Origin: an uncultured Alphaproteobacteria bacterium
Lineage (GTDB): Bacteria > Pseudomonadota > Alphaproteobacteria > HIMB59 > GCA-002718135
Length of the DNA stretch: 64,000 bases
Reading direction: 5' to 3'
Assembly: GCA_902595855.1 (NCBI GenBank)
Contig: CACJRY010000008.1
Span: 4,966-68,965, forward strand
Shown: positions 7,806 to 57,535 of the stretch, piece by piece
Position numbering within the stretch: the stretch's first letter is position 1
Layout: each line of letters opens with the position of its first letter
Program-made: the position numbers and the translations under genes
Notes under the pieces: generated by a model
What the model was told of the DNA's origin: nothing
What the model saw: the letters and a program-made list of their open reading frames with translations, nothing else
Databases searched by the model: none

Positions 7806-8375
7806 TTAAAGGTAAGAAACTAAACCTATAGATTTTCTAAATCGATCCCTAATAGTAACAGCGTTCAGTGGTATTGGCTTTATTGGCACATTACCTGATT
7901 GGATTTTAGAAATAATGACATACGAGTTATCTTTATCAGCTAATGCCTTTTTTAAATTTCCATCTGTTTCTTCGCCAGAACACTCTATAACATTTTTACA
8001 TCCAGCTCCAATAGCAACCTCTTTTAATGAGGTACGTTCATTAGTAAAAGTTTTTTGATCGCCAGTAGAACCATAAGAGCCGTTATCAACTATAAGAAGA
8101 GTATAATTTGAAGGTGCTCTATTACCTATAGTTGCTAGAGTGTTCATATTCATTAAAACCGACCCATCACCATCAATACAAATCACCTTTTTATCAACTG
8201 TTAAAGATAATCCTAAACCAATTGATGATGCTAAACCCATACTTCCTAACATGTAAAAATAATTTGGGCGGTCATTAATTTTATATAATTCTTGTGAAGG
8301 AAGCCCAATGTTGCAAATAACTAATTCATTTTGAATTGTTTCTTTCAACAGGTTTAATAATTCAAATCTATTCAT
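7806..8375 (-). CDS. comE: Sulfopyruvate decarboxylase beta subunit-like protein (split ThDP enzyme, PP-binding half)
   Basis: 189 aa with the ThDP motif GDGSVLMNMNTLATIG...LLIVDNGSYGSTG. It is paired with a 165-aa pyrimidine-binding half directly upstream. Phosphonopyruvate decarboxylase is the alternative assignment. Confidence 0.65.
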   Translation of the reverse strand: MNRFELLNLLKETIQNELVICNIGLPSQELYKINDRPNYFYMLGSMGLASSIGLGLSLTVDKKVICIDGDGSVLMNMNTLATIGNRAPSNYTLLIVDNGSYGSTGDQKTFTNERTSLKEVAIGAGCKNVIECSGEETDGNLKKALADKDNSYVIISKIQSGNVPIKPIPLNAVTIRDRFRKSIGLVSYL

Positions 8376-8377
8376 CT

Positions 8378-8875
8378 TTAGTCATCCTTCATTAAATTAA
8401 AATTACAAAGTACAGCGACAGGACTTTCAATGACTTTTGCATGATTAGTAAATGTAGATATTTTATCAAGATCATCTTCAGTGTTACAATGAAGCATAGG
8501 TATGCGAAGGGTATTCAATATATCTTCGGTAACACTTGCCATTCCACCCTGAGCTCCAACTGGTTCTCCAGGGGTGCCTCGATAACTTATCAAGAAAACA
8601 ACTGGCATTTGGTATAGTTGCAAAAGAGAAACAATAGAATTGACAGAATTACCAATTCCAGTGTTTTGCATCATTATACATGGAAGTTTATTTCCTAAAT
8701 ACGCACCTGCACAAATACCCATTCCTTCTTCTTCTCTTGGAATTGCTGAGTAATAAATATCTTTATCATTCTCTAAAATAGTAATCATATTTGCTAGAAG
8801 TTTACAGGGAACACTTAAGAAAAAATCTGCTCCACCTTCTTTTAAATTAGTAATAATTTTTTGGCTTATTTTCAT
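8378..8875 (-). CDS. comD: Sulfopyruvate decarboxylase alpha subunit-like protein (ThDP pyrimidine-binding half)
   Basis: 165 aa; REEEGMGICAGAYLGN and MQNTGIGNSVN are typical of the ThDP N-terminal domain. There is a 2-nt gap to the beta half. Confidence 0.65.
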   Translation of the reverse strand: MKISQKIITNLKEGGADFFLSVPCKLLANMITILENDKDIYYSAIPREEEGMGICAGAYLGNKLPCIMMQNTGIGNSVNSIVSLLQLYQMPVVFLISYRGTPGEPVGAQGGMASVTEDILNTLRIPMLHCNTEDDLDKISTFTNHAKVIESPVAVLCNFNLMKDD

Positions 8876-8924: not shown

Positions 8925-9974
8925 TTAAAAATTGTTACGTAATTTAATTTTTATCTTTGATAAATAATTTTTATTTTTTCTTAAAATTGGAGGTGGAAAA
9001 TTTGATTGATTTATTGCATCTGGATAGTTTTGTGGCTCTATACACATTCCATATTGAATTCCATATGATTTATTATACTTACCTAAATAATCGTCTAACA
9101 TCATATTTCCTGTATAAAATTGAATTCCTTTTTGATTGGTAAAATACTCGACACCCATTTTAGTTTTTTTACTATAAATTTTTGCGACTGGAGTCTTCAT
9201 CGATTGATCATCTAAAACATAATTATGATCAATGCCTCCAGAATTTAAAAATTCTTTATCTATTTTAAAAGATTTTCTTAAATCAAATTTTGTATCAGAT
9301 ACATTTAAAAGCTTGCCAGTTGGTATCGATTTTTCATCGGTCTCACATATTGCTCCAGAGTTTATTTGTACAACATGATCCTCATTATTTTGGTAATAAT
9401 CTTGGTGTCCATGAAAATTCCAATAATTATGATTGGTAAGGTTAACAATTGTGTCTTTATCTGTTGTTGCATGAAACTCAATAAAAAGTTCATTGTGATT
9501 ATTTAATTCATAAATTACTTTGCAATCAAGATTTCCAGGATAATTTTCTTCCTTATCGGGCGAAAGATACCTTAAAACACATTTAGTAGAGTTTGTTTTT
9601 TCTTCTATACTATCAATTTTCCAAATTTTTTTATTAAAACCAGTTTTACCACCATGTAAATGATTTGGTGGGATGTTTGCAAATAGTTTATAATTTTTAT
9701 TATCTAATGAAAACTGAGCACCACCTATTCTATTAGCAACTCTTCCGACTATAGAATTAAAATACCCGTTTGAATTTAGAACACCATCAACATCTCCATA
9801 ACCCAGAAGAACATCCTCTGTTTTATTTTCACTGTTAAGATATGGAATGTTTACTTCATGAATATATCCTCCATAATTATAAAATTTAAAGCTAAAATTA
9901 TTATCATTAACTACCTCAACTGATTCGATAGGAAGTGCGGCAGGATTTTCTATTTTATCTTGTTTAATTTTCAT
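8925..9974 (-). CDS. galM: Aldose 1-epimerase (mutarotase)
   Basis: 349 aa. GRVANRI, NHLHGG..GF..K.W, LTNHNYWN and IEPQ.YPDA are mutarotase hallmarks. Confidence 0.85.
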   Translation of the reverse strand: MKIKQDKIENPAALPIESVEVVNDNNFSFKFYNYGGYIHEVNIPYLNSENKTEDVLLGYGDVDGVLNSNGYFNSIVGRVANRIGGAQFSLDNKNYKLFANIPPNHLHGGKTGFNKKIWKIDSIEEKTNSTKCVLRYLSPDKEENYPGNLDCKVIYELNNHNELFIEFHATTDKDTIVNLTNHNYWNFHGHQDYYQNNEDHVVQINSGAICETDEKSIPTGKLLNVSDTKFDLRKSFKIDKEFLNSGGIDHNYVLDDQSMKTPVAKIYSKKTKMGVEYFTNQKGIQFYTGNMMLDDYLGKYNKSYGIQYGMCIEPQNYPDAINQSNFPPPILRKNKNYLSKIKIKLRNNF

Positions 9975-10873
9975 GACGCTTTTCTATCCCTTGTTTTTAT
10001 AGAATTTTTTTGACGAAGGTAGATGATTATTCCTCCCGCCACAATAAATAGAGCTCCAGGAAACAATTGATCTACTGGCCATTCTCTAAAGAATATCCAT
10101 CCCAAGATTAATGCAAAAAATATTTCTATGTAATCAAACGGCATTATTTTACTTAGCTCTGCTTTTCTTGCACCATATATAAGTAGTAGAGTTCCAGTAC
10201 CGCCTGCCAAACCCATCAGAAAGAAAATAAACAAATCATTTATACTTCTAAAATTTTCCCACATCCCAAAAGTTAACACTAGTATTAATGATACACTGAT
10301 TGTACCAACTTGACCGTAAATGTTAATTAATGGTGTTGGAACATCTATAGTAAAACTTAAAGAAGTCACCCGCGCTAGGGAGTAACCCAAAGCTGCTATA
10401 ACTGGTAATAAAATCATATAATTAAAATCAGATGACCAGGGTTCCATAATAAGAACAATACCTATAAAACCAGATATAACCGCAGATGTCTTAAACCATC
10501 CAAATTTTTCTCCAAGAATAGGCACGCTTAATAGTGTCACCATCATAGGGCCTGTATATTCCATCGTAGCTACAAGGGCAAAAGGCAAATATAAATATGA
10601 GGTGTACAAACAAAGCTGAGCTAATGCTACAAAAGCTCCTCGAAGAAATCCTAATCTCCATTGTTTAATTTTAATTTTTCTTCCATTTTGATGCCAGTCG
10701 GTTGAAAAATAAAGTGCAATAAAACATGGGATCATTCCAAAAAGATTTCTGAAAACAGACAATTGTGCTGCTGGGTAATCATTTCTTAAAAACTTAATAG
10801 CAATACCCATACAGTCCATTAGAAATAATCCTGAAAGAGATAGGGCTACTGCTAGTAATAAATTATTTTTCAA
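9971..10873 (-). CDS. DMT superfamily (EamA-like) transporter
   Basis: 300 aa, about 10 hydrophobic helices, two-repeat architecture. ATGA overlap with galM. Confidence 0.8.
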   Translation of the reverse strand: MKNNLLLAVALSLSGLFLMDCMGIAIKFLRNDYPAAQLSVFRNLFGMIPCFIALYFSTDWHQNGRKIKIKQWRLGFLRGAFVALAQLCLYTSYLYLPFALVATMEYTGPMMVTLLSVPILGEKFGWFKTSAVISGFIGIVLIMEPWSSDFNYMILLPVIAALGYSLARVTSLSFTIDVPTPLINIYGQVGTISVSLILVLTFGMWENFRSINDLFIFFLMGLAGGTGTLLLIYGARKAELSKIMPFDYIEIFFALILGWIFFREWPVDQLFPGALFIVAGGIIIYLRQKNSIKTRDRKAS

Positions 10874-10877
10874 TTAG

Positions 10878-11882
10878 CTAAGCACAATTAACACAACATT
10901 GATCAACCCAATGATTTGGTGATACTTCTTTTAATCCCATTTCAATATTTCCCTCCTTACAATCGTGTGTAGGATTTGGACATCTTGTTCTAAACACACA
11001 ACCAGATGGAGGATTCATTGCACTAGGTATTTCTCCTTGTAATTCAATTGCTTTGGATTTATTTTCAGGATCTACAGATGGAATAGAGGATAATAGCGCT
11101 TTCGTATATGAGTGTCTTGGATTACTAAATAACTCTCTTGACGGAGCCATTTCAACTATATGGCCTAGATACATAACAGCAACAATATCACAGACGTGAG
11201 CTACAACACTTAGGTCATGACTTATAAATAAATATGTTAAATTTAACTCTTGCTGAAGTTGTTTCAGAAGATTTAAGATGTCTGCTTGTATAGATACATC
11301 TAGAGCAGCAACACTTTCATCAGCAACAATAAATTTTGGATTGCTCACAAGAGCTCTAGCTATAGAAATACGTTGCCGTTGTCCTCCAGAGAATGCGTGA
11401 GGAAATCTTCTTAAGTGCTCTAAATTTAATCGACATTTTGCAGCTATATCCCTTACCCTTTCATCAGTCTCCTCTCTTGAGGTCGTTATTTTCATAACCT
11501 CTAATGGTTCAGCAATTATATCTCTAACAGTCATTCGGGGACTAAGGGCCGCATAAGGATCTTGAAAGATTAATTGAGCTTTTTTTCTATATTCTTTCAT
11601 TTCTTTTGACGTAATAGTTGTTAAATCAAAATCTCTATCATCATCATGAAAAATAACATTTCCAGAACTTATTTTATTTGCACCTAAGATAGCTCTACCT
11701 AAAGTAGTTTTACCTGAACCTGACTCACCAACTAAACCAAAAAAAGATCCTTTTTTAATTTTAATATTAATATTATTTACAGCTTTTATTTTTTGTTTTT
11801 TTGATAAAAAATTTTCTTGATAGTCAAAAGAGACAGATAAATTATTTACTGATACAATATTTTCTTTCATATTTATCCGCAA
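10878..11882 (-). CDS. Peptide/nickel-type ABC transporter ATPase (OppF/DppF-like) with a Cys-rich C-terminal tail
   Basis: Walker A GESGSGKTT, signature FSGGQRQR, Walker B VADESVAALD. The tail is GCVFRTRCPNPTHDCKEG...HWVDQCCVNCA. Confidence 0.9.
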   Translation of the reverse strand: MRINMKENIVSVNNLSVSFDYQENFLSKKQKIKAVNNINIKIKKGSFFGLVGESGSGKTTLGRAILGANKISSGNVIFHDDDRDFDLTTITSKEMKEYRKKAQLIFQDPYAALSPRMTVRDIIAEPLEVMKITTSREETDERVRDIAAKCRLNLEHLRRFPHAFSGGQRQRISIARALVSNPKFIVADESVAALDVSIQADILNLLKQLQQELNLTYLFISHDLSVVAHVCDIVAVMYLGHIVEMAPSRELFSNPRHSYTKALLSSIPSVDPENKSKAIELQGEIPSAMNPPSGCVFRTRCPNPTHDCKEGNIEMGLKEVSPNHWVDQCCVNCA

Positions 11883-12853
11883 TTAATACAACATTTATCT
11901 ACCCAATGACCTGGACTTATTTCAATTAAAGCCATTTCAATATTTCCTTCTCTACAATCATGAGTAGGATTGGGACACCTTGTTCTAAAAACACAACCTG
12001 TAGGTCTTTCTAAAGGACTGGGTATATTTCCTGGTATAGGTGTTAAAGGTGCATCAAGATTATTAATATCAGGAAGTGCATTTAATAAACCTCTTGTATA
12101 TGGATGTTTTGGGTTTTTTAAAATTTCATTAACTGGGCCTCGCTCAACAACACTTCCAAGATACATAACTGCAACATCGTCTGCAACCTGGGCAATTACA
12201 CCTAAATCATGTGTTATAAATATAACACCCATATTAAATTCCTTAATAATATCTTTAATTAAATTTATTACTTGAGCTTGAATAGTTACATCTAAAGCTG
12301 TTGTAGGTTCATCTGCTAATAATAGTTTAGGCATTGTTGATAAAGCCATAGCAATCATCGCACGCTGCCTCATTCCTCCTGATAGCTCAAATGCATATTG
12401 ATTAAATCGTTTCTCAGCATCTGCTATCCCTACTCTATTTAACATATCTATTGATATATTTTTTGCTTTATTCTTATCTAGAGGTTTGTGAATCATTAGT
12501 TGCTCAACCATTTGACTACCTATTTTAATAGCTGGTGCAAAACTAGCCATAGGTTCTTGAAAAATCATTGAAACTTTTCCACCTCGAATTTTTTTTAAAT
12601 CATTTTTAGAAGTAAACTTAAGAACATTTTCATCATCAATTATTATTTCAGCGTTATCATTATAAATAGTATTGCCTGGATTAAGTTGCATAATTGATTT
12701 TGCTGTTACAGACTTACCAGATCCTGACTCACCAACAATTCCTAAAACTTTACCTTGATCCAGTGTTAGAGATACATTATCTATTGCTGTTATACGACCT
12801 TCATCAGTATCAAACTTTACATCAAGATTATTTATTTCTAAGAGATGTGTCAT
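11873..12853 (-). CDS. Peptide/nickel-type ABC transporter ATPase (OppD/DppD-like) with a Cys-rich C-terminal tail
   Basis: GESGSGKSV, LSGGMRQR, LLADEPTTALD. The tail is GCVFRTRCPNPTHDCREG...HWVDKCCINCG. Confidence 0.9.
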   Translation of the reverse strand: MTHLLEINNLDVKFDTDEGRITAIDNVSLTLDQGKVLGIVGESGSGKSVTAKSIMQLNPGNTIYNDNAEIIIDDENVLKFTSKNDLKKIRGGKVSMIFQEPMASFAPAIKIGSQMVEQLMIHKPLDKNKAKNISIDMLNRVGIADAEKRFNQYAFELSGGMRQRAMIAMALSTMPKLLLADEPTTALDVTIQAQVINLIKDIIKEFNMGVIFITHDLGVIAQVADDVAVMYLGSVVERGPVNEILKNPKHPYTRGLLNALPDINNLDAPLTPIPGNIPSPLERPTGCVFRTRCPNPTHDCREGNIEMALIEISPGHWVDKCCINCG

Positions 12854-12859
12854 AAAAAT

Positions 12860-14023
12860 TTAATTCTTTGTTTTATGTGGATCTGCAGCATCACGAAGAC
12901 CATCTCCGACATATACAAAAGTTAATATTAAAACAACTAAGAAGAAGACAGGTATAAAATACCATTGGTAATTTAATAATACATCTGCCTTTGTAGCATT
13001 TTGTAAGAGAACACCTAATGAATTTACAGGTTCTCTTAACCCTAAACCTATAAAGCTAAGGGCTGTTTCAGATAACAACATGTAAGGAAAACTTATAACC
13101 AGATCAACAATTATGTAGCTTGTAAAACTTGGTAAAAGATGTCGGATAATAATATGAGTTGATGAAGCACCACACATTTTAGCTGCCAAAATATATTCCT
13201 GACTTCTTTCACTTAGTAAATGGGTTCGAACACGTCTTGCTAAAGTTGGCCAAGATATCAAACCTAGCAAACAGGATATAAAGAAAAACCTAAGTTCTGA
13301 ACTCCATTCAAGGGGCGCAAAAGCTGCTAGACACATAAATAGAGGTATGGGGGGTACAGTTCGAATGGCATCTGTAAACATTTGCAACAAACTATCAATC
13401 CAGCCGCCATAATATCCTGAGATACCTCCTATAATTAGAGATAAAACAAAAGATATAAATACTCCCAATGTACCAACTGCTAATGAAATATATATTGCAC
13501 TTAAGGTTCTGCTAAATAAATCTTTTCCAGCTTTATCAGTGCCAAATAAGTGGATTCCGCCCTCTTCAACACCAAATAAATGTGTATTAAATGTTAGCCC
13601 AGGAATTGTAAAATCTAATGCCTTACCAGGAAGATTAATACTATAATTAAAATATTTATATTCCCAACCCTTAACAAAAAAATAAACATAGCGTCTTTTT
13701 TCTGTATCTGTTTTATAGACCCATCTGAAATTTGTATCAGCTCCTCTATATTTTGTTAAAGTATGCAAAAAAGGTCTAGGGGAAAAACCATTTTCATCCC
13801 AAAACATTGGAATTTGTGGAGCACCGTTTTCATAATCTTTATCACGTCCGGCAATTGTTGGATCATATGGAGATAAAAAACCAGAAAAAAGACTGCAAAC
13901 TATCATGAATAACAAAATAGAACCTGCAATCATGGCTGAACGGTTTCCAAAGAAACGAGTTCTAACCAATTGCATTTGAGTGGCTGTATAATATGCTTCT
14001 TTCTTTTTTGTACTAACCTCCAC
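12860..14023 (-). CDS. ABC transporter permease (OppC/DppC-like)
   Basis: 387 aa, multi-TM. Its position in the operon fits BPD-type transport permeases of the peptide family. Confidence 0.85.
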   Translation of the reverse strand: MEVSTKKKEAYYTATQMQLVRTRFFGNRSAMIAGSILLFMIVCSLFSGFLSPYDPTIAGRDKDYENGAPQIPMFWDENGFSPRPFLHTLTKYRGADTNFRWVYKTDTEKRRYVYFFVKGWEYKYFNYSINLPGKALDFTIPGLTFNTHLFGVEEGGIHLFGTDKAGKDLFSRTLSAIYISLAVGTLGVFISFVLSLIIGGISGYYGGWIDSLLQMFTDAIRTVPPIPLFMCLAAFAPLEWSSELRFFFISCLLGLISWPTLARRVRTHLLSERSQEYILAAKMCGASSTHIIIRHLLPSFTSYIIVDLVISFPYMLLSETALSFIGLGLREPVNSLGVLLQNATKADVLLNYQWYFIPVFFLVVLILTFVYVGDGLRDAADPHKTKN

Positions 14024-15026
14024 CCATGACTCCTTTTCTAATTCTTGGATCCATTATTGCTAATAATATATCAGTTACAAAATTTACAAAAACAATTGTT
14101 GCAGTTAATAAAAATATTATAGCACCTGCTAATTGTTGATCATTAGATCTAGCTAAAGCCTCTATCAACAATGCACCAGCTTCAGTTAAAATTAAAATCA
14201 AAGCAACTACTGGAAGAGCACTAAAAATTCTATTTAAATCAAATCCAATAGAATTTATTACTGGCCCAAGTGAATGTTTTGCTGGATACCGCCATAATAA
14301 ACTCATTCCTGATATTCCTCTTGCTCTTGCAGCCATAACATAGAGTTTATCATTTTCATCTAACATCAATGCTCTAACAGTTTGTAGTGCAAAAGCAGTA
14401 GCGTTCCAACCAAGAACAAAAATAGGCAGCCATGCCCTAGCAAGAAAATCTTTTAACTTATCAGCAGACCAAGGAGCATTTTCATATTCTTGAGAGAACA
14501 AACCTGTCATTGTATCTCCATAATATACTGTCATAAAAAGCATTATACAAAGGGCTACTAAAAAGTTTGGTAATGCTATTCCTAAATAACTAACAAATTT
14601 AAGCGTCTGATCTAAAGAGACATATTTTGTAGTGGCGGAAATAATACCAACTGGTATGGCTATTAAATAAGAAAAGATTAAAGCAACCAAACATATTGTA
14701 AGAGAAAGCATAAACCTTCCACTAAGAAGATCATTGATGTTCATTCGAAGAATACAACTATCTCCAAAATCTTGATTTATAACAATATCGGATACCCATT
14801 TTCCATATCTATAAAAAAATGGTTTATCCAAACCTAAGCGTACTTTTTCAGCCTCGATATCTTCAAATGTTATCTGAGAACCTTGTGTATTTTTAAAAGC
14901 TAAATATCTTTCTGCACATGTTCCAGGAACTAATTCCATTAATGAAAAAACTATAAAACAAACTATGAGCAATGTTACGATTGCTAAAAAAGCCCTAGTT
15001 AATGTGAATTGGATAAAATTAATCAT
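14013..15026 (-). CDS. ABC transporter permease (OppB/DppB-like)
   Basis: 337 aa, multi-TM. The N-terminal (I/L)..R....I.....V....F pattern is typical of DppB/OppB. Confidence 0.85.
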   Translation of the reverse strand: MINFIQFTLTRAFLAIVTLLIVCFIVFSLMELVPGTCAERYLAFKNTQGSQITFEDIEAEKVRLGLDKPFFYRYGKWVSDIVINQDFGDSCILRMNINDLLSGRFMLSLTICLVALIFSYLIAIPVGIISATTKYVSLDQTLKFVSYLGIALPNFLVALCIMLFMTVYYGDTMTGLFSQEYENAPWSADKLKDFLARAWLPIFVLGWNATAFALQTVRALMLDENDKLYVMAARARGISGMSLLWRYPAKHSLGPVINSIGFDLNRIFSALPVVALILILTEAGALLIEALARSNDQQLAGAIIFLLTATIVFVNFVTDILLAIMDPRIRKGVMGGG

Positions 15027-15062
15027 AATTTGAATTTAGTTAGTTACCGTTTCAGAATAATT

Positions 15063-15100
15063 AAAAAAAAGAAAAGCGGCAATATAAAATTGCCGCTTTT
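15063..15100 (-). terminator. Rho-independent terminator/attenuator between the SBP gene and the permease genes
   Basis: aaaagcggcaat (15072-15083) pairs with attgccgctttt (15089-15100) around a 5-nt loop. On the minus transcript it is followed by c plus a U8 run (plus-strand A-run 15063-15070). Confidence 0.75.
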
Positions 15101-15121
15101 AAAGATATTTATATACTTATC

Positions 15122-21079: not shown

Positions 21080-21082
21080 TTT

Positions 21083-21943: not shown

Positions 21944-21969
21944 ACTTAATTTCTTTGATAAGAAAACAT

Positions 21970-22947: not shown

Positions 22948-22957
22948 TGTTATTAGA

Positions 22958-44337: not shown

Positions 44338-44340
44338 AAT

Positions 44341-48889: not shown

Positions 48890-49881
48890 TGAAAGCACTA
48901 GTTTTTACAGACAAACAGAAATTAGAATATCAATCAATGCCAATGCCTGTTATCAAAGAACAGGAGTTATTAGTAAAGGTATCTGGGGCAGGGATATGTG
49001 GCTCGGATATGCACGCCTACCATGGTTTTGATAGTAGAAGAATACCTCCATTAATTCTTGGTCATGAAATAAGTGGCACAATAGAAAATTCAGATCAAAG
49101 TGTCATTGTTAATCCACTAGTAACTTGTGGTTCTTGTTATGAATGTAAAAATGAAATTGATCATTTGTGTCAATCTAGTAGTTTTATTGGAATGTCAAAA
49201 CCAATAGAACGACATGGTGGTTTTGCAGAATATGTTAGTGTTCCAAAAAAAAATTTACATTATATTAATCAAACAAATATTTTATCGACACTTTCTTTAA
49301 CAGAGCCTACGGCTGTATCACTTCATGCGATAGAACTTGCTAAAAAGCATTCAATAAAGCAACTTAATGAGAGTAAAATCATAATAATTGGTGGCGGGGC
49401 AATTGGATTGTTAACTGGATTAATTTTAAATAGCATTGGTATTGTGAACTACACAATAATAGATACAAATAAAAAAAGATTGGATGTATGTAAAAAGGCT
49501 TCAGGGTGCCAAATTTACTTTCCAGATGATCACAAAGTTAAAAAAAATTCATATGATTTAGTATTTGATGCTGTTGGACTTGAAAAAACAAGGAAACAAT
49601 CGATTGAATGTGTCAAACAAGGCGGAACAATTATTCATATAGGATTAAGTCAACCAGCAGGTGAATTTGATTTTAGAAAAACAACATTACAAGAAATTAT
49701 TTTTATTGGTAGCTCTCGTTATACTGATCAAGATTTTAAAAAATCAATTAATATAATTGAAGATAATAAATTAGGTGATTTGAATTGGTTGGATTTTAGA
49801 TCTTTAAGTGATGGAAGTAATGCATTTAGAGAAATTCATGATGGCTCAACTGCATCACCTAAAATTATTTTAACACCTTAA
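48889..49881 (+). CDS. Zn-dependent medium-chain alcohol/polyol dehydrogenase
   Basis: MKALVF..., GICGSDMH, GHEISG and the structural Zn cluster CGSCYECKNEIDHLC. I chose ATG 48889 (TAATG overlap with the CMD stop) over the track start at 48820. Confidence 0.85.
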   Translation: MKALVFTDKQKLEYQSMPMPVIKEQELLVKVSGAGICGSDMHAYHGFDSRRIPPLILGHEISGTIENSDQSVIVNPLVTCGSCYECKNEIDHLCQSSSFIGMSKPIERHGGFAEYVSVPKKNLHYINQTNILSTLSLTEPTAVSLHAIELAKKHSIKQLNESKIIIIGGGAIGLLTGLILNSIGIVNYTIIDTNKKRLDVCKKASGCQIYFPDDHKVKKNSYDLVFDAVGLEKTRKQSIECVKQGGTIIHIGLSQPAGEFDFRKTTLQEIIFIGSSRYTDQDFKKSINIIEDNKLGDLNWLDFRSLSDGSNAFREIHDGSTASPKIILTP

Positions 49882-50798
49882 TTATAAATATAAAAAATAT
49901 ATCCAAAATATAATATTAGACCTATCGAACCATAAGTTCTTCCAAGTCTTTTTAAAGCAAACATAAATCCTAAAATCGTTATTGTCACAAAAAGCATAAA
50001 GAACAGATCAATATTGTCGATAACATCTGGTATATTAAAGTTACCAAAAAAAGATGAAATTCCTAATACGCCCAACACATTATAAATATTTGACCCTAAA
50101 ATATTTCCAAGAGCAAAATCAACTTTTCTTCTTAAAGCAGATAGAATCCCTACTACTAATTCAGGTAATGATGTCCCAAAAGCTACCAAAGACACACCTA
50201 TTATAGCTGCTGGAATATTGAGTTGACTAGCAATATTGATTGCCGATTCAACAAAAAGATCAGAACCATAAATTAATAAAATTATTCCAATTACAATAAA
50301 AGTTATGGAAAGAAAAAGAGAGTAATCCCCTTTTTCCTCAACTTCTGACACATCTAGAGTTCCCTGCTTTACTTGCAAAAACATTATGAAAAATAAAAAA
50401 ACTATTGATAAGATTCCAAAGAAAAAATTAAATGGTAAGATAAAGAGGTTCATTATAATTAAAACAATAGCTAAAAGTATATTTATCCATGCCTGATTTA
50501 TTTGGTTTTGATTGATATTATCAATTGGAACAAGAAAAGATGTTGCTGCCATAACTAAAATTAAATTAGCAATATTGCTACCCACTACTGCTCCTACAGC
50601 AAGATCAGCATGATTAGAAACTACTGCATTTATACTACTTGCCAATTCAGGTAACGAAGTACCTCCGGCAACTATAACAACACCTATTGCAAATAAAGAT
50701 ACATTTAGTTTTTTCCCAAAACTGACTGAACCTCGAATAATAAGCTCTGCCCCTAAGATTAAGAAAGTTAAACCAATAATTAATAAAAAAAGATTCAC
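49878..50798 (-). CDS. CaCA-family Na+/Ca2+ exchanger (YrbG-like)
   Basis: 306 aa with two alpha-repeats, GTSLPELASSI and GTSLPELVVGI. Confidence 0.85.
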   Translation of the reverse strand: MNLFLLIIGLTFLILGAELIIRGSVSFGKKLNVSLFAIGVVIVAGGTSLPELASSINAVVSNHADLAVGAVVGSNIANLILVMAATSFLVPIDNINQNQINQAWINILLAIVLIIMNLFILPFNFFFGILSIVFLFFIMFLQVKQGTLDVSEVEEKGDYSLFLSITFIVIGIILLIYGSDLFVESAINIASQLNIPAAIIGVSLVAFGTSLPELVVGILSALRRKVDFALGNILGSNIYNVLGVLGISSFFGNFNIPDVIDNIDLFFMLFVTITILGFMFALKRLGRTYGSIGLILYFGYIFYIYN

Positions 50799-50804: not shown

Positions 50805-52139
50805 TTAACTGCCGTAGATATAATGTGGGAGCCATAAAGCAATTTGAGGAAAAATAATAATTAAAAGTAAACCTATTACTTGAAGAACCATAAATTGCAT
50901 CATTCCTATATAAATATCTTTTAAATCCCACTCAGGTACTACACCTTTTAAGAAGTATGCAGATAGGGCAACAGGTGGAGACAGCCAAGCTGTTTGCAAG
51001 TTGACTGCAACAAGAATAGCAAACCAAATTAGGTTAAAACCTAAACCTTCAATAAGAGGTAAAATAATAGGCACAACAATTAAAACAATTGGTACCCATT
51101 CTAAAGGCCAACCTAAAAGAAAAATCATAGCCATTACAATAAGTAAAATTAAATATCTATTTACTTCTAAACTTAATAAGAAATCAGTAATCATTGACGG
51201 GGTTCCTAATCTAGCAAAAACAGCTCCAAAGAAATTAGAAGCTGCTACTAACAACATTATTAAGGCAGTAATCTCAAGAGTTTTAATTAGTCCATCTTTT
51301 AATTTTTCTAGAGTTAACTTACGGTATGCTAGTGCTAATAAAATAGATCCAAGGGCACCACAGCCAGCAGCTTCAGTTGGTGTTGCAAGCCCAAACAAAA
51401 TACTTCCTAGCGCGGAAAAAACCAAAAGTGCTGGAGGCACTAATCCCATAAAAAATTCATAAAGAACAACTTTAATATCCTTTTCCCTATCTTCTTCTGG
51501 AACAACAGGTCCAAGTGAAGGATCTAAGTAACACCTAATAGTAGCATAACCAGCATATAAAACTGCTAGCATAATTCCAGGAATGATAGCTGCTGCAAAA
51601 AGATCTGTAACAGGAATTTCCATGATGGGGCCCATCACAACAAGCATAATACTTGGTGGAATTAAAATTCCTAAAGTTCCTCCTGCAGTTATTGTTCCAG
51701 CTGCTAACCTAACATCATATCCTGATCTATTCATGGATTTTGCAGCCATAATTCCCAATATTGTAACTGATGCACCGACAATACCTGTGGCAGCAGCAAA
51801 AATGATAGATACAAAAAGAACAGCATAAAAAAGAGATCCGCGAACTCTTGAAAGCATCATCTGCACTGAAGAAAATAATCTTTCCATTAAACCTGCTTGT
51901 TCCATCATTATACCCATAAAGACAAACAGTGGGACGGCAGCCAATGTTTGCTCGGTCATGACCATCGAAAACTGCAATGTCATTAAATAGAAAACTAATT
52001 TTCCAAATCCGAGATAGCCAAAAACAAATCCTAAAAAAATTAAAGTAAAGGAAATTGGGAAACCAACAAAAATAGAAAATAGCATTACCGCTATTAAAAA
52101 TATTCCTAAAATCTCCGGACTAATAAATTCTGCAATCAT
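50805..52139 (-). CDS. TRAP transporter large permease (DctM-like)
   Basis: 444 aa, about 12 TM. ATGA overlap with the small-permease gene. Confidence 0.9.
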   Translation of the reverse strand: MIAEFISPEILGIFLIAVMLFSIFVGFPISFTLIFLGFVFGYLGFGKLVFYLMTLQFSMVMTEQTLAAVPLFVFMGIMMEQAGLMERLFSSVQMMLSRVRGSLFYAVLFVSIIFAAATGIVGASVTILGIMAAKSMNRSGYDVRLAAGTITAGGTLGILIPPSIMLVVMGPIMEIPVTDLFAAAIIPGIMLAVLYAGYATIRCYLDPSLGPVVPEEDREKDIKVVLYEFFMGLVPPALLVFSALGSILFGLATPTEAAGCGALGSILLALAYRKLTLEKLKDGLIKTLEITALIMLLVAASNFFGAVFARLGTPSMITDFLLSLEVNRYLILLIVMAMIFLLGWPLEWVPIVLIVVPIILPLIEGLGFNLIWFAILVAVNLQTAWLSPPVALSAYFLKGVVPEWDLKDIYIGMMQFMVLQVIGLLLIIIFPQIALWLPHYIYGS

Positions 52140-52747
52140 TCATCACCTGGCCATTTACCATTTTTCATTGCATAGTGACTTTTCAATAATTCAGAGACAC
52201 CTTGTATAAGTAAAAAAACTATACCAATCCATAAGCATGATTTTATTGGCCAAAGATAAGGCATCCAAGCGGTATCCATTCCTTTTTCACCACGTTGCAT
52301 TGACTCGATGACAAATATTGTAGTCATATACAAACAAAAGAAAAGTCCAGGAAAATAGAAAAATAAATATAACCAAAAATCGACAAAACCTTGCGTTTTT
52401 GTTTTAAAATTACGATATAAAAAATCTGCCCTTATATGTACACCTCTTGATAATGCATAACCCGAACCAATCATAAACATAGCACCGTAAAAAAATCTGC
52501 TCATGTCGTAGGCCCAGTAAGTAGGTGCGAGAAAAAATTTTCTTGCTACAACCTCATATGCCATACATAAAAATAATGGAACAGTTATCCAGCAAATAGT
52601 TTTTCCCACCAGCAAACTAAATTTATCAATGTTGATAATTGTGTTATAAATCCATTTTGCCATGTCAGATGGCTTTTCAAAATATCCTACTTTTCTTTCA
52701 GCTATTAACTCATCCTTTAAATCGTAATCTTGAATATTATCTGACAT
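52136..52747 (-). CDS. TRAP transporter small permease (DctQ-like)
   Basis: 203 aa, 4 TM. Its position between the SBP and DctM genes fits. Confidence 0.8.
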   Translation of the reverse strand: MSDNIQDYDLKDELIAERKVGYFEKPSDMAKWIYNTIINIDKFSLLVGKTICWITVPLFLCMAYEVVARKFFLAPTYWAYDMSRFFYGAMFMIGSGYALSRGVHIRADFLYRNFKTKTQGFVDFWLYLFFYFPGLFFCLYMTTIFVIESMQRGEKGMDTAWMPYLWPIKSCLWIGIVFLLIQGVSELLKSHYAMKNGKWPGDE

Positions 52748-52767
52748 TATTGTGTTCTACAGGAATT

Positions 52768-52793
52768 AAAGAGCGGAAACTAGTCCGCTCTTT
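52768..52793 (-). other. Intra-operon stem-loop between the TRAP SBP and permease genes
   Basis: aaagagcgga (52768-52777) pairs with tccgctcttt (52784-52793) around a 6-nt loop. No clear U-run follows, so this may be an attenuator or RNA-stability element rather than a full terminator. Confidence 0.45.
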
Positions 52794-52805
52794 ATATATT
52801 TTAAA

Positions 52806-53906
52806 TTATTTTAATGTTGCAGCGTGAGCCATACCTAACTTAGCATTAGACATTTGAGCCCCACTCCAGAATGGTACTGCAATATCAGCAAATTCTTTCA
52901 TAGAAGTATAAACTTCATTAAAAAATTCATTTTCTTCAGCATTTTTATTCAGGGTTGCTAAAGCTGCTGCCATGTATTCAGAGAAATAATCTGTTGGCGT
53001 ATCATGAAGTATAACACCTGCTTCTTCTGTTAACATTCTAAGTGCTTTCCCATTTTCATAGATTCTGTCAGATAACGTTAGCATCAATGATGCATCAGCT
53101 GCTACCTGTAGAGAAGCTTTTTCATGATCGGTTAAACTATCATAAAGAGTTCCATTCATATAAAAATCTGCATTTACAACAACTTGGTGTAAACCTTGAA
53201 GATAGTAATGCTTTAATACTTTTTGAAAACCAAACACGCTATCAGGTTTTGGACAACACCATTCAGCGGCATCAATAGTTCCAGCTTCAAGTGCAGGAAG
53301 TATGTCACCTCCACCCATAGCTACTGAGGCAATACCGATATCTTTATATGTTTGACCAGGTATACCTGGAGGTGTTCTAAAACGATATTTTCTAAAATCC
53401 TCCATGCTTGTAATTGGCTCTTTAAACCATCCTAATGCTTCTGGTCCAACAGGTTGAAGCATAAATCCTTTTATGTCTCTTCCCATCTCATCCCAAAGTT
53501 GTTCGTATAATTCTTTTCCACCTGCTGCGTTAAACCAAGATAAAAAAGCAAGGTTATCAATTCCTACACCTCCGCCTGCAACTGGTGAACCAAATAGCAT
53601 TGCTGCTGGGTGTTCGCCTGACCAATAATGAGTCCAAGCAAATCCACAATCAATTAGACCTTTGTCAATTGCATCAAGTGTTTCTTTTCCTCCAACAACT
53701 GTACCTGCTGGCATAATTTCGAAATTCAAAGAGCCACCAGTTAACTCAGTAACTCTATCAGTAAACTCCTCTTTAAGTAAGCGCGCTTCATCACTTTTAG
53801 CATTTAAAACTGTTTGACACTTTAAAGTCTTTGCAGCTTTAGCTGATACAGTCATAAATCCTAAAATTATGACTGAACCTAAGATTATTTTTAAAAATTT
53901 TTTCAT
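52806..53906 (-). CDS. TRAP transporter periplasmic substrate-binding protein
   Basis: Signal peptide MKKFLKIILGSVIILGFMTVSAKA. I chose ATG 53906, preceded by GGGAGGAAAC, over the track start at 53942. Confidence 0.85.
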   Translation of the reverse strand: MKKFLKIILGSVIILGFMTVSAKAAKTLKCQTVLNAKSDEARLLKEEFTDRVTELTGGSLNFEIMPAGTVVGGKETLDAIDKGLIDCGFAWTHYWSGEHPAAMLFGSPVAGGGVGIDNLAFLSWFNAAGGKELYEQLWDEMGRDIKGFMLQPVGPEALGWFKEPITSMEDFRKYRFRTPPGIPGQTYKDIGIASVAMGGGDILPALEAGTIDAAEWCCPKPDSVFGFQKVLKHYYLQGLHQVVVNADFYMNGTLYDSLTDHEKASLQVAADASLMLTLSDRIYENGKALRMLTEEAGVILHDTPTDYFSEYMAAALATLNKNAEENEFFNEVYTSMKEFADIAVPFWSGAQMSNAKLGMAHAATLK

Positions 53907-53943
53907 GTTTCCTCCCGAAAAATTGTATTTAAAACTTAACATG

Positions 53944-54154: not shown

Positions 54155-55756
54155 ATGAATAAAAACTTTGATTATATTATTGTTGGCGCAGGTTCAGCAG
54201 GTTGTGTTTTAGCAAATCGGTTAACAACAAATCCTAATAATTCAGTTCTTCTAATTGAAGCAGGTGGCAAAGATACTTATCCTTGGATTCATATTCCTGT
54301 TGGATATTATAAAACCATGCACAATCCTAAAACAGATTGGTGTTTTAAAACAGAACCTGATGAGTCAATTAATGGTAGATCAATTAATTATCCTCGAGGT
54401 AAAACTTTAGGGGGTAGTTCTTCTATAAATGGTCTTTTATATATCAGAGGTCAATCAAAAGATTATGATATATGGCGTCAACAAGGAAATACTGGATGGG
54501 GTTGGGATGATGTTCTACCCTACTTTATTAAATCAGAAAATCAAGAAAGAGGTGCGAATAAGTTTCATGGTGTTGGCGGTCCTTTATCAGTCTCAGACAT
54601 TAGAATTAAACTTGATATTTTGGATGAATTTCAAAATGCTGCAGAAGAAATGGGGATTCCTAAAATTAAGGACTTTAATACCGGAGATAATTTTGGATGT
54701 GATTATTTTCAGGTTACAGAAAAAAATGGTTTACGATGCAGTACTGCTGTTGCGTATCTTAATCCTGCAAAAAAAAGAACAAACTTACAAGTAGAAGTAA
54801 AAGCACACGTTAACAAAATTAATTTTGAAGAAAAAAAAGCAATTGGCATTTCGTATTGGAAAGATAATGAGTTAATTACAGTAAAAGCCAATAAAGAAGT
54901 TATTTTATCTGCCGGATCAATTGGCTCTCCTCATATTCTTCAAGTATCTGGCATTGGTGATGAAGAAAAACTAAGAAATTTAGGAATACCCCTAATACAT
55001 CACAACTCTAGTGTTGGGAAAAACTTACAGGATCACCTAATGTTACGGCCTGTCTATAAAGTTAAAAATATCAAAACACTAAACAGGACTATCAACAGTT
55101 TTTTTGGAAAAATGATGATTGGTATGGAATTTGTTTTTTTCAGAAGAGGTGTAATGACAATGGGAGCCAGTCAACTTTGTGGTTTCGCTAAAAGTGATGA
55201 AAGTAGAGAAACACCAAATTTGCAATTTCATGTTCAACCTATTAGCACCGATAGATTAGGGGGGGCAAGTCTTCATGATTTTAATGCTTTTACTCCAACT
55301 GTTGCAAATATAAGACCAACAAGTAGAGGAGAAGTATTTATAACTTCAAAAGATTCTAGAGAATATCCAAAAATAAAAATGAATTATCTTTCAACTGAAG
55401 AGGATAGGCAAGTATCAGCAGCAGGTATCAGATTAATAAGAAAAATTATTTTTGAAAGTGAGACATTTAAAAAATATCAACCAGAAGAGTTTAGACCAGG
55501 TATAAATTTTCAAAGTGATGAAGAAATTATTCAAGCTTCAAGTGAACATGTGCAAACAATTTTTCACCCCGTTGGAACTTGTAAGATGGGTAGTGACAAC
55601 ACCTCAGTAGTAAGTGATAAACTGAAAGTTTATGGTGTTGAAAACTTACGAGTTGTAGATGCATCTATAATGCCCAACATAACTTCAGGTAATACTAATG
55701 CTCCAACAATTATGATTGCTGAAAAAGCATCAGATATAATTATTTCTGATCAATAA
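54155..55756 (+). CDS. GMC-family FAD oxidoreductase (choline-dehydrogenase-like; IseJ-like candidate)
   Basis: YIIVGAGSAGCVLANRL, GGSSSINGLLY, and the C-terminal HPVGTCKMG and NTNAPTIMIAEKASD. Confidence 0.9.
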   Translation: MNKNFDYIIVGAGSAGCVLANRLTTNPNNSVLLIEAGGKDTYPWIHIPVGYYKTMHNPKTDWCFKTEPDESINGRSINYPRGKTLGGSSSINGLLYIRGQSKDYDIWRQQGNTGWGWDDVLPYFIKSENQERGANKFHGVGGPLSVSDIRIKLDILDEFQNAAEEMGIPKIKDFNTGDNFGCDYFQVTEKNGLRCSTAVAYLNPAKKRTNLQVEVKAHVNKINFEEKKAIGISYWKDNELITVKANKEVILSAGSIGSPHILQVSGIGDEEKLRNLGIPLIHHNSSVGKNLQDHLMLRPVYKVKNIKTLNRTINSFFGKMMIGMEFVFFRRGVMTMGASQLCGFAKSDESRETPNLQFHVQPISTDRLGGASLHDFNAFTPTVANIRPTSRGEVFITSKDSREYPKIKMNYLSTEEDRQVSAAGIRLIRKIIFESETFKKYQPEEFRPGINFQSDEEIIQASSEHVQTIFHPVGTCKMGSDNTSVVSDKLKVYGVENLRVVDASIMPNITSGNTNAPTIMIAEKASDIIISDQ

Positions 55757-55759
55757 ATC

Positions 55760-57535
55760 TTATTGAACAACAGTATCTTTACTATTTATTCCTGCTACTT
55801 CTACTGGCGCTTTCATTGCGTCTCTTCTAAAAGGTTCACCTAATTCTTGATTTAAAATAACTTCTATAAAAGTTGTAATACCATTCATTTGTTCAACACA
55901 GGATGTTTTTAAAGCTTCAGTTAACTCTGATTGAGTTGTAACTTTAACTCCCTTGAACCCACACGCTTCGGCAATTTTTGCATAACTTAATTTTGGATCA
56001 AGTTCAGTTCCAATAAAATTATTGTCATACCAAAGAGTTGTATTTCGTTTCTCTGCACCCCATTGGTAGTTTCGGAAAATAACCATAGTAATATTTGGCC
56101 ATTCCTCTCTGCTGCATGAAGTCATTTCACTCATACTAATTCCAAAAGCTCCATCTCCCGAGAAGCCAATAACAGGTGTATCTGGACATCCAATTTTAGC
56201 TCCTAAAACTGAAGGGAAACCATAGCCACATGGTCCAAACAAACCTGGTGCTAAATATTTTCTTCCTTGCTCAAAAGTCGGATAAGCATTTCCGATTGCA
56301 CAATTGTTACCAATATCACTTGAGATAATTGCTTCTTCAGGAAGACCTGCTTGAATAGCTCTCCACGCCATACGCGGAGACATTCTGTCAGGATCCCTTT
56401 CACGAGAGTCTTTATTCCAGGTAGTACCTTCATCATCCTCTTCATGGTCAAGGCTTGTTAGCGTTTGAAGCCATGCAGATTTAGTTTGATGAATTAAAGC
56501 CTTCCTATCTTCTCTTCCAGCATCTCCTGCACTTGGTGATAATTCACTTAGAATTTGTTTTGCTACTAATTTAGCGTCACCACAAACTCCCACTGTTATT
56601 TTTTTTGCTAATCCGATCCTGTCGGAATTTATATCAACTTGAATAATCTTTGCTTCCTTAGGCCAATAATCTATTCCGTAACCAGGAAGAGTAGAAAAAG
56701 GGTTCAATCTTGTTCCAAGGGCCAAAACTACATCAGCTTTTGAAATTATCTCCATAGCAGCTTTAGACCCATTATATCCAAGAGGGCCCACAGCAAGTGG
56801 ATGCTTTCCAGGAAAACTGTCGTTATGTTGATATCCACACGCAACAGGCGCATCCAATTTTTCTGCTATATTTTTACAATCTTCAATTGCATCAGCAAGA
56901 ACAACACCAGCTCCTGATAATATTACTGGGAATTTTGCATTAGATAAAAGTTGTGCAGCTTTACTTATAGCGGTTGAGCCACCAGACGGTCTCTCAAATT
57001 CAATAATTGATGGTAATTCAATATCAATTACTTGTGTCCAGAAATCTCTTGGTACATTTATTTGAGCAGGAGCCGACCCCCTTTTTGCTTTTAAAATAAC
57101 TCTATTTAAAACTTCAGCCATTCTAGATGCGTCACGCACTTCTTCTTGATAACAAACCATATCTTTAAATAAGTTCATTTGTTCCACTTCTTGAAAACCA
57201 CCTTGACCCATTGTTTTGTTAGCAGCCTGAGGTGTAACTAAAAGCATAGGAGTATGATTCCAATAAGCTGTTTTTATAGGAGTTACTAATCCTGTAATAC
57301 CAGGTCCATTTTGAGCAATACACATAGCAAGTTTGCCTGTTGATCTCGTATAACCATCAGCAATGAGACCACCATTTGACTCATGAGCAACATCCCAAAA
57401 AGTTATCCCCGCTTTTGGGAAAAGGTCTGAAATTGGCATAAATGCTGATCCAATTATTCCAAAAGAATGTTGTATTCCGTGCATTTGTAGAACTTTTACA
57501 AAAGCTTCCTCAGTAGTCATTTTAGCCATCTTCAC
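55760..57535 (-). CDS. xsc: Sulfoacetaldehyde acetyltransferase
   Basis: 591 aa. The N-terminus MTTEEAFVKVLQMHGIQHSFGIIGSAFMPISDLFPKAGITFWD matches my recollection of Xsc almost word for word. ThDP motif GDGAFGISMSEMTS...FRNYQWGAEK. Confidence 0.88.
   Translation of the reverse strand: MKMAKMTTEEAFVKVLQMHGIQHSFGIIGSAFMPISDLFPKAGITFWDVAHESNGGLIADGYTRSTGKLAMCIAQNGPGITGLVTPIKTAYWNHTPMLLVTPQAANKTMGQGGFQEVEQMNLFKDMVCYQEEVRDASRMAEVLNRVILKAKRGSAPAQINVPRDFWTQVIDIELPSIIEFERPSGGSTAISKAAQLLSNAKFPVILSGAGVVLADAIEDCKNIAEKLDAPVACGYQHNDSFPGKHPLAVGPLGYNGSKAAMEIISKADVVLALGTRLNPFSTLPGYGIDYWPKEAKIIQVDINSDRIGLAKKITVGVCGDAKLVAKQILSELSPSAGDAGREDRKALIHQTKSAWLQTLTSLDHEEDDEGTTWNKDSRERDPDRMSPRMAWRAIQAGLPEEAIISSDIGNNCAIGNAYPTFEQGRKYLAPGLFGPCGYGFPSVLGAKIGCPDTPVIGFSGDGAFGISMSEMTSCSREEWPNITMVIFRNYQWGAEKRNTTLWYDNNFIGTELDPKLSYAKIAEACGFKGVKVTTQSELTEALKTSCVEQMNGITTFIEVILNQELGEPFRRDAMKAPVEVAGINSKDTVVQ

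Follow-up and report, generated by a model that had tools for sequence, protein, structure and literature searches.

A genus-conserved neighbourhood of a HIMB59-order alphaproteobacterium that probably gathers organosulfonate catabolism around sulfoacetaldehyde acetyltransferase

Sulfonates such as 2,3-dihydroxypropane-1-sulfonate (DHPS), isethionate, taurine and the products of sulfoquinovose serve as major currencies that connect phytoplankton or zooplankton with bacteria, and Xsc is the enzyme that cleaves sulfoacetaldehyde to acetyl phosphate plus sulfite. In this work we have analysed a window of 64,000 nucleotides containing an xsc gene (contig C8, positions 4966-68965, G+C content ~31%) from an uncultured alphaproteobacterium of the HIMB59 order, whose assembly comprises 1.47 Mb in 38 contigs and is estimated to be 84% complete; the genome-wide negatives given below rest on this assembly. 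The closest described systems are the Ruegeria pomeroyi clusters hpsR-hpsKLMNOPQ-slcD and iseR-iseMLK/iseJ (PMC4334477) and the SAR11 cluster around SAR11_0864, a protein of strain HTCC1062 described as the binding protein of a transporter of the tripartite ATP-independent periplasmic (TRAP) type and reported to bind isethionate and R/S-DHPS (PMC11485210, PMC13335735), which belongs to an uptake system with nanomolar-range ligands (PMC11485210). Sulfur and sulfonates are not mentioned in two comparative-genomics papers on the HIMB59/AEGEAN-169 lineage. We found that in this streamlined marine alphaproteobacterium the window belongs to a chromosomal neighbourhood of ~55 kb that is kept across the genus, and the best explanation, which we regard as probable while far from certain, is that this neighbourhood brings the organism's organosulfonate catabolism together around Xsc, in four modules. 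All the enzyme families and proposed reactions have been described before and the known biochemistry is unchanged; what is new is the host lineage, the presence of four modules on one conserved backbone, a variant of HpsN, a Sox set without SoxAX and a possible sulfoglycolysis-ComDE-Xsc pathway in sister strains.

The genes with counterparts in the SAR11 cluster are the following (positions of the window):

55760..57535, minus strand: xsc, sulfoacetaldehyde acetyltransferase, thiamine diphosphate-dependent (TIGR03457, NF005713)
54155..55756, plus strand: GMC flavoprotein (PF00732/PF05199)
50805..53942, minus strand: TRAP transporter genes dctP (52806-53942; Pfam DctP), dctQ (52136-52747; Pfam DctQ) and dctM (50805-52139; TIGR00786 DctM)
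48889..49881, plus strand: Zn-dependent alcohol dehydrogenase (Zn-ADH), HpsP-like candidate (PF08240/PF00107)
40281..41567, plus strand: HpsN-like DHPS-3-dehydrogenase (sulfolactate-forming) of the HisD family, by similarity to solved HpsN
27391..28158, minus strand: short-chain dehydrogenase/reductase (SDR), HpsO-like candidate (PF13561)
25546-26457, plus strand: pta, short-type phosphate acetyltransferase (PF01515, 119.8 bits)

For the comparison with SAR11 we used 74 Pelagibacteraceae TRAP loci and considered the neighbours of the TRAP genes. GMC and SDR genes were each found in 71 of these loci, Xsc in 35, Zn-ADH in 10, HpsN in 9 and Pta in 4, and in 71/74 the TRAP operon diverges from the GMC gene, an arrangement also present in the window. 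Some of the loci are compact, with the order xsc..SDR-GMC / dctPQM-hpsN-ADH..pta and pta a few kb off. The window proteins are clearly alike to those of the SAR11_0864-type cluster, with identities of 79-84% for Xsc, 60-75% for GMC, 78-83% for the TRAP binding protein DctP, 82-85% for DctM, 70-74% for HpsN, 47-52% for Zn-ADH, 59-66% for SDR and 57-58% for Pta. The window thus has the gene complement of the compact SAR11 cluster, separated by insertions: what is compact there is spread here over ~30 kb by cassettes with a Rieske/old yellow enzyme (OYE) pair, cysQDNC, a SnoaL-like cluster and a sugar ATP-binding cassette (ABC) system. The two differ further in that comDE and an aminotransferase-Ald pair are present in the window neighbourhood, with neither observed in the 10 kb around the SAR11 TRAP genes, and in the HpsN motif, which is GRYNN in the window and GR[Y/F]AH in SAR11. 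In turn, SAR11 locus L097 has a TerC-family membrane protein between SDR and GMC (7687-8259) and an Ldh_2 (ComC-family) gene overlapping the start of pta (18527-19537), both of which the window lacks.

The neighbourhood is also kept within the genus. We compared 25 genomes of the genus, the source included, with 16 genomes of a sister family of the same order, and Xsc was found in 20/25 of the former and in 0/16 of the latter, a set that includes a complete 1.4-Mb genome. Nine other species have in common the order uvrC - xsc - (GMC) - (TRAP) - CaCA - (variable) - cysQDNC - HpsN site - SnoaL-like cluster, continued by lacI - sugar ABC - HAD - SDR - DMT - pta / aminotransferase - ald and by (variable) - MetE-like - sulfatase / ABC - DMT - mutarotase - comDE. 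Each key gene is single in the 1.47-Mb assembly, and four independent modules would fall within 50 kb of a ~1.5-Mb genome with a chance of 4 x (0.034)^3, or ~1.5e-4; because the gene order recurs in nine other species, the co-location is not due to chance. The open reading frames (ORFs) on which the original prediction was built are all present, intact and correctly placed. Its suggestion of a sulfonate-specialised region is in line with a neighbourhood that is kept across the genus and is not borne out by the whole of the content, as about one third of the genes in the span can be linked to sulfonate or sulfur metabolism and about two thirds are unrelated or unexplained. Moreover, several sites vary in content by species: the HpsN site carries the GRYNN type in some species and in others a type with AGKFPM, which is 46-48% identical to it and scores 402 bits to CpHpsN, the GMC slot holds one of two types that are ~59% identical to each other or is empty, and the TRAP operon and a sulfoglycolysis-like block are each present or absent. 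Such swapping of cassettes at fixed sites is similar to what has been described for flexible genomic islands of the HIMB59 order (PMC10734472). Altogether, this abundant, uncultured and streamlined genus, which does not belong to SAR11 proper, is probably equipped for a wider range of sulfonates than SAR11, with cassettes that can be swapped on a conserved backbone.

From gene families, synteny and conservation we infer the following scheme, in which it is conjectural what the substrates are, which way the flux runs and how sulfolactate is linked to sulfopyruvate. The SAR11_0864-type TRAP transporter would import isethionate and/or DHPS, and the adjacent IseJ-like GMC would oxidise isethionate to sulfoacetaldehyde, which Xsc would convert to acetyl phosphate and sulfite. 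The HpsN-like dehydrogenase would take DHPS to sulfolactate, possibly with the help of the Zn-ADH and the SDR, and ComDE would decarboxylate sulfopyruvate to sulfoacetaldehyde, standing at the tail of a glycoside-import operon that has been shorn of its sulfoglycolysis-like genes. The omega-aminotransferase, together with Ald, would deaminate taurine or hypotaurine to sulfoacetaldehyde, Pta would turn the acetyl phosphate from Xsc into acetyl-CoA, and the drug/metabolite transporter (DMT) coupled to it would move a substrate or a product. Finally, sulfite would leave through a single TauE and/or be oxidised by SoxCD-SoxYZ-SoxB encoded on another contig.

The identity of the anchor gene is clear. 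Xsc scores 947 bits on the TIGR03457 equivalog (cut-off 676) and 1022 bits on NF005713, with a wide gap to the next family, acetolactate synthase, at 304 bits, so that the xsc gene claimed in the original prediction is genuine. With the proteins annotated as Xsc in Sinorhizobium, Cereibacter, Paracoccus and Azospirillum it shares 75-77% identity, and its only paralogues in the genome are acetolactate-synthase-like genes at 22-28% identity. The presence of a TRAP transporter and a GMC dehydrogenase beside xsc was likewise borne out, the three forming a conserved trio common to SAR11. By family the TRAP genes are ordinary DctP, DctQ and DctM; the binding protein is 98% identical to its counterpart in the single-cell genome 'uncultured Alphaproteobacteria bacterium AG-447-A02'. 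Its sequence shows no significant resemblance to the protein at the IseK position of Ruegeria and falls into a different cluster. By analogy with the SAR11 system, dctPQM probably encodes an isethionate/DHPS importer.

Transcription of the GMC gene diverges from that of dctPQM and converges on that of xsc. A role as BetA was ruled out by its score on the BetA equivalog TIGR01810 (507 bits, cut-off 732) and by the position of Escherichia coli BetA in the tree, where it pairs with the other GMC paralogue of the genome (contig C4) with support of 100/100; a well-supported clade of GMC proteins from LivABC-transporter contexts also excludes the window protein. The GMC is 53% identical to a GMC from a Ruegeria plasmid, in an iclR-dctMQP/GMC cluster that mirrors iseR-iseMLK/iseJ of R. 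pomeroyi, and 52% identical to a Caballeronia GMC in a cluster of the order xsc-pta-iclR-GMC-MFS (xsc-pta-iseR-iseJ-iseU type). These two proteins from IseJ contexts group together with support of 86/88. Judging mainly from its conserved context, the window GMC is probably an IseJ-like dehydrogenase of isethionate or of a related hydroxy-sulfonate. The last gene of the TRAP operon is the following:

49878..50798, minus strand: CaCA-family Ca2+/Na+ antiporter-like protein (PF01699; TIGR00367 188 bits, cut-off 180)

It keeps its place by GMC and Xsc in all the relatives examined. Because tight ligand binding by the SAR11 binding protein in vitro required Ca2+ (PMC11485210), one may speculate that the antiporter is tied to a Ca2+ need of the binding protein.

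With respect to DHPS, the HpsN-like protein scores 528 bits to the solved CpHpsN of Cupriavidus (8V35), 511 bits to (R)-DHPS dehydrogenase (8WWE) and 250 bits to the best HisD, and the true hisD lies elsewhere (contig C1:138850-140136) and is 32% identical to it. The catalytic residues Glu318/His319 and the Zn ligand Asp352 of CpHpsN (PMC11382572) align with 'apEHlev' and 'ygDkcsg' of the window protein, and placement in the HpsN clade, as first proposed, was upheld. As to possible partners, the Zn-ADH shows 47-52% identity to the ADH found directly after HpsN in SAR11 dctPQM-hpsN-ADH operons and 40% to the one that takes the HpsP position in a roseobacter hps cluster. The SDR, 59-66% identical to the SDR between xsc and GMC in Pelagibacteraceae loci, shares just 32% identity with the SDR in the HpsO position of the roseobacter; by analogy, both are possibly HpsP/HpsO-like partners of the HpsN-like enzyme. 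A small ORF of ~125 aa, below the 150-aa cut-off and carboxymuconolactone-decarboxylase-like by eye, fills 48500-48889, and because of this the Zn-ADH probably starts at the ATG at 48889 and not at the predicted TTG.

Compared with the roseobacter DHPS and isethionate clusters, the window has in common uptake by a TRAP system, HpsN with an SDR and a Zn-ADH as partners, the enzymes ComDE and Xsc, and a GMC gene transcribed divergently to the TRAP operon, with identities of 56% for HpsN, 40% for ADH, 53% for GMC and 73% for Xsc. Unlike them, it has neither an IclR/LacI-type sulfonate regulator nor SlcD, its TRAP binding protein belongs to another cluster, and its genes do not form one operon. 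The roseobacter plasmid CP081100 carries hpsKLM-hpsN-SDR-ADH-usp-comD next to xsc.

The pta gene stands divergently to an operon with an aminotransferase:

26457-27359, plus strand: DMT/EamA transporter, translationally coupled to pta by a stop/start overlap
24073-25425, minus strand: omega-amino-acid:pyruvate aminotransferase (NF052567, AptA equivalog)
22958-24073, minus strand: ald, alanine dehydrogenase (TIGR00518 500 bits, cut-off 392)
21970-22947, minus strand: ureohydrolase, in the same operon (21083..25425), downstream of ald
21083-21943, minus strand: DUF1989 protein, in the same operon (21083..25425)

The pta-like gene was confirmed as a short-type Pta, with 294 bits on NF006045 (cut-off 282) and only 66 bits on the canonical TIGR00651 (cut-off 311), and it is the sole PTA_PTB gene in the assembly. 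Short-type relatives at 38-39.5% identity include one (39.5%) in an iclR-pta-...-soeABC-xsc cluster of Azospirillum and one beside ackA in Pararhizobium. The aminotransferase stop overlaps the ald start, and the best solved relatives of the enzyme are pyruvate-dependent class-III omega-transaminases; the divergent arrangement of Pta and aminotransferase-Ald is kept in most relatives examined, with no match to Ald in G024. The ureohydrolase, a divergent protein whose best solved relative is 3-guanidinopropionase (134 bits), was matched only in G011 among nine relatives and DUF1989 in none; the ureohydrolase step could lead from taurocyamine to taurine or, equally, from guanidinopropionate to beta-alanine. 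The locus thus has in common with the taurine dissimilation systems Tpa-Ald-Xsc-Pta (Bilophila, Rhodococcus and R. pomeroyi SPO0673) a class-III pyruvate aminotransferase overlapped by ald and Pta and Xsc in the neighbourhood, and differs from them in that the aminotransferase is an AptA orthologue, no TauABC or TauR was found, and a ureohydrolase and DUF1989 are attached. We lean slightly towards a taurine or hypotaurine role for the aminotransferase, and favour an amino-sulfonate substrate because of the Ald overlap, the sole Pta divergent from the pair and the occurrence of the same Pta type in an xsc/soeABC cluster and beside ackA. The pta gene is also followed by a DMT/EamA-type gene, with 10 transmembrane segments, in the distant congener G019 (L017 3963-5743), but the DMT proteins of the two loci have diverged so far that no match appears at an E-value of 1e-5.

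The remaining sulfonate genes, comD and comE, form the last pair of a glycoside-type ABC/mutarotase operon:

8378-8875, minus strand: comD (TIGR03845 155.6 bits, cut-off 147.95)
7806-8375, minus strand: comE (TIGR03846 219 bits, cut-off 221.5)
8925..18881: aldose 1-epimerase, DMT/EamA protein, Dpp/Opp-type ABC transporter and a sulfatase divergent from the operon (Pfam calls)

The phosphonopyruvate decarboxylase model TIGR03297 gives only 97 and 130 bits on ComD and ComE (cut-off 312), members of their clusters are labelled sulfopyruvate decarboxylase by both NCBI and JGI, and the identical ComD sequence occurs on 551 contigs. We therefore retain a split sulfopyruvate decarboxylase as a prediction from sequence; of what the original prediction claimed, the adjacent pair stands, with ComD above its cut-off and both proteins far under the cut-off of the phosphonopyruvate model, and the ComE score and the setting in a glycoside-import operon, not a sulfolactate cluster, speak for caution. 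The ABC binding protein (686 aa, cluster-C type) has oligosaccharide and pectin binders as its best solved relatives, the epimerase/mutarotase is GalM-like and generic, neither of the two gave a sulfoquinovose-specific match among solved structures, and the sulfatase is PehA-like, well under the cut-off.

Further genes lie after comE on the metagenomic contigs whose ComD is identical and in three congeneric species. They encode a PfkB kinase, two dehydrogenases (one of the D-2-hydroxyacid type, one IolG-like) and an SftI-like isomerase, the last a full-length but distant homologue of sulfoquinovose isomerase (307 bits, cut-off 700); a LacD-type aldolase (324 bits, cut-off 184) was found only on same-species contigs. 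The block lies at L002 11092-16399 and also in L020, L023 and L029, and the same-species contigs continue to a second sugar ABC system and a sulfatase. By its families it looks like sulfoglycolysis followed by conversion of sulfolactate via sulfopyruvate to sulfoacetaldehyde. The contiguity of comDE with mutarotase, SftI-like, PfkB and dehydrogenase genes in the sister strains and species is reminiscent of the sulfo-EMP/EMP2 (Embden-Meyerhof-Parnas) and sulfo-TAL (transaldolase) pathways joined to ComDE/Xsc of the Roseovarius nubinhibens type, from which they differ in that the isomerase of the relatives is distant and the block is absent in the source genome. Two other species also lack it, and there comE adjoins an agmatinase-family gene. 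Because the block is absent, ComDE would here be fed from elsewhere or be a remnant. It is possible, and we propose it only tentatively, that a tandem pathway not described before exists in the genus in which the importer, mutarotase, SftI-like isomerase, PfkB and LacD would split a sulfosugar (sulfoquinovose or a relative), the dehydrogenases would take sulfolactaldehyde via sulfolactate to sulfopyruvate, and ComDE and Xsc would desulfonate it, the window strain having a shortened version. This version keeps the importer, mutarotase and ComDE, and the GRYNN HpsN may feed ComDE from DHPS.

A number of observations weigh against the gathering of four catabolic modules around Xsc. Starting with the TRAP-GMC part, the tree leaves the GMCs of IseJ contexts in a polytomy with the window, SAR11 and type-B GMCs, and the IseJ-like role therefore rests mainly on conserved context; moreover, no sulfonate regulator, including one of the IclR or LacI type, was found in the window. 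In the HpsN-like protein, the motif said to separate HpsN (G-R-Y-A/S-H) from HisD (G-S-A-P-L) reads GRYNN instead of GRY[A/S]H, with Asn128 aligned to His126 of CpHpsN, a histidine that is a Zn ligand in the resting enzyme and a sulfonate ligand in the complex (PMC11382572). GRYNN is not a sequencing error, since it is common to 119/119 near-identical metagenomic homologues and to the sister species G020 and G011, while the SAR11 orthologues retain the histidine. By sequence, then, we are dealing with an HpsN-clade enzyme that lacks one defining feature and that probably still acts on DHPS. For ComDE, the score of ComE is 2.5 bits under the TIGR03846 cut-off, and the sulfolactate dehydrogenase that should link HpsN to ComDE was not identified in the source assembly, where the 2-hydroxyacid dehydrogenase that adjoins comE in sister strains is missing too. 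The Ldh_2 gene was rejected as ComC, as it scores 178 bits where the sulfolactate dehydrogenase cut-off is 500, has a betaine-type ABC transporter and a sarcosine oxidase as its neighbours and shares 28% identity with the Ldh_2 that lies beside pta in SAR11; as a candidate for SlcD, the LldD-like flavin mononucleotide (FMN) dehydrogenase is uninformative, as it also occurs in the sister family that lacks Xsc. For the aminotransferase, the AptA equivalog NF052567 gives 587 bits against a cut-off of 500, the solved proteins closest to it are Pseudomonas beta-alanine:pyruvate transaminases (393 bits), taurine:2-oxoglutarate aminotransferase reaches 162 bits, TauA was not found in any of the 25 genomes, and a guanidino-acid-type ureohydrolase after ald also fits a route from guanidinopropionate to beta-alanine. 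The aminotransferase next to ald that had been proposed is therefore right in class and linkage, and its assignment to taurine as Tpa is not sustained by the sequence.

An alternative is that only TRAP-GMC-Xsc, with Pta, makes up a working route to sulfoacetaldehyde and that the other genes merely adjoin it in a flexible region for scavenging nutrients, each with an end point of its own, the HpsN sulfolactate being excreted for a gain of NADH only, the aminotransferase operon degrading beta-alanine or 3-guanidinopropionate and ComDE being the leftover of a lost sulfosugar pathway. This alternative, which we consider rather improbable, is favoured by the AptA/beta-alanine type of the aminotransferase, by the distantly guanidinopropionase-like ureohydrolase, of which JGI labels a cluster member guanidinopropionase, by the lack of TauA, by the block missing after comE, and by cassettes that are swapped between species at fixed sites as in the HIMB59 islands. 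It is also favoured by the lack of an identified sulfolactate dehydrogenase, SuyAB or CuyA in the source genome: the sole UxaA-family gene of the assembly encodes a fused 498-aa galactarate-dehydratase-like protein and not a split SuyAB, with an apparent sugar-type context (tblastn matches to SDR and GFO genes nearby), and CuyA gave no match. However, a beta-alanine route needs no Pta, and Pta is divergently paired with the aminotransferase operon in each of the species examined; comDE is intact and highly conserved, which is not what a leftover would suggest, and the four modules remain together across the genus. In addition, hpsN and comD stand in a single cluster beside xsc on the roseobacter plasmid, so that the route from HpsN via sulfopyruvate to ComDE that had been proposed for the window does exist as one cluster, even if its sulfolactate dehydrogenase was not identified here. 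We thus keep the gathering of four catabolic modules as the preferred explanation.

As stated in the original prediction, the window holds no Sor/Soe, Apr or TauE gene; the fate of sulfite, which had been left open, is partly answered by the rest of the genome, with TauE, SoxCD, SoxYZ and SoxB present and AprA, SoxA and SoeA-like proteins not found. Adenosine 5'-phosphosulfate (APS) reductase as the sulfite sink, on the SAR11 model, was discarded with the lack of AprA in the source genome. SoeABC was discarded as well, as the only two large molybdopterin enzymes are a formate-dehydrogenase alpha subunit by sequence inspection and NuoG by size, with no family scan. There is one gene of the TauE family, on contig C9, and contig C1:22401-28909 carries the run soxY-soxZ-soxC-soxD-soxB, in which SoxC scores 622 bits (cut-off 420) and SoxB, SoxY and SoxZ also pass their equivalog cut-offs. 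Beside this run there are, by sequence reading, a flavocytochrome-c-like flavoprotein and a cupredoxin. Sox-type sulfite oxidation is made uncertain by the absence of SoxA from the 25 genomes searched (source and 24 relatives), which is another point against the scheme, and export by TauE and/or periplasmic oxidation by SoxCD-SoxYZ-SoxB is the best available guess. As objects for testing, the locus offers an HpsN without the signature histidine, an IseJ-like GMC that SAR11 also has, a candidate sink for sulfite in the form of Sox proteins without SoxAX, and the possible path from sulfoglycolysis to Xsc in sister strains.

Inside the span there is also a set that the original prediction did not mention:

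41564..45135, minus strand: cysNC, cysD and cysQ, sulfate activation to 3'-phosphoadenosine 5'-phosphosulfate (PAPS) and recycling of 3'-phosphoadenosine 5'-phosphate (Pfam APS_kinase + GTP_EFTU, PAPS_reduct, Inositol_P)

CysDNC and CysQ activate sulfate to PAPS and consume no sulfite. The genes are convergent with the HpsN-like gene, with a 4-nt overlap, keep this position in most relatives examined and have no reductive genes nearby, and this content is consistent with HIMB59, which is reported to have cysD, cysN and cysQ and to lack aprA (PMC5069961, Table 3). A division of the order into two families likewise agrees with what has been published on the HIMB59/AEGEAN-169 group (PMC10734472). 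They could point to a partly biosynthetic locus in which PAPS together with sulfolactate, sulfopyruvate or sulfoacetaldehyde would feed a sulfonated osmolyte or lipid head group (such as isethionate, taurine or a coenzyme-M-like compound), with the aminotransferase and the SDR/GMC running towards taurine or isethionate, since transaminase and dehydrogenase reactions are reversible in principle and ComDE (TIGR03845/6 family) is the enzyme of coenzyme M biosynthesis in methanogens. We consider this very improbable, as the locus is anchored by Xsc, a catabolic desulfonating enzyme, its enzymes are flanked by importers (TRAP, ABC) and not by synthases, genes of the ComA/ComB or cysteate-synthase type are absent among the general family calls for the window, and the SAR11 counterpart serves uptake (PMC11485210).

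By family calls, the rest of the span contains two MetE-like genes, an alanine racemase, a sulfatase and two ABC systems, one Dpp-type and the other sugar-type and accompanied by LacI, HAD and SDR genes. In addition there are four tandem-domain SnoaL-like proteins and a cupin, the Rieske/OYE pair, the Zn-ADH and the CaCA antiporter. Rfam and tRNA scans found nothing, and a search for a shared operator motif among the promoter regions gave only AT-rich chance words. Between lacI and the HpsN-like gene (33674-40219) lie the four SnoaL-like paralogues, of 330-380 aa and mostly with two SnoaL-like domains each, together with a MetE-like catalytic-domain protein and the cupin; other species have a second allelic version of this cluster with 56-75% identity. 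Because the SnoaL-like/sugar ABC segment is 92-98% identical between species and the flanking genes only 47-87%, its sequence suggests a recent exchange between species. Finally, between cysQ and the TRAP region (45184-48436), and only in part of the genus, a gene for a Rieske oxygenase alpha subunit, with a weak GbcA-like match, precedes one for an OYE/FMN-plus-flavin adenine dinucleotide oxidoreductase; the two look like a pair for the demethylation of methylated amines or betaines.

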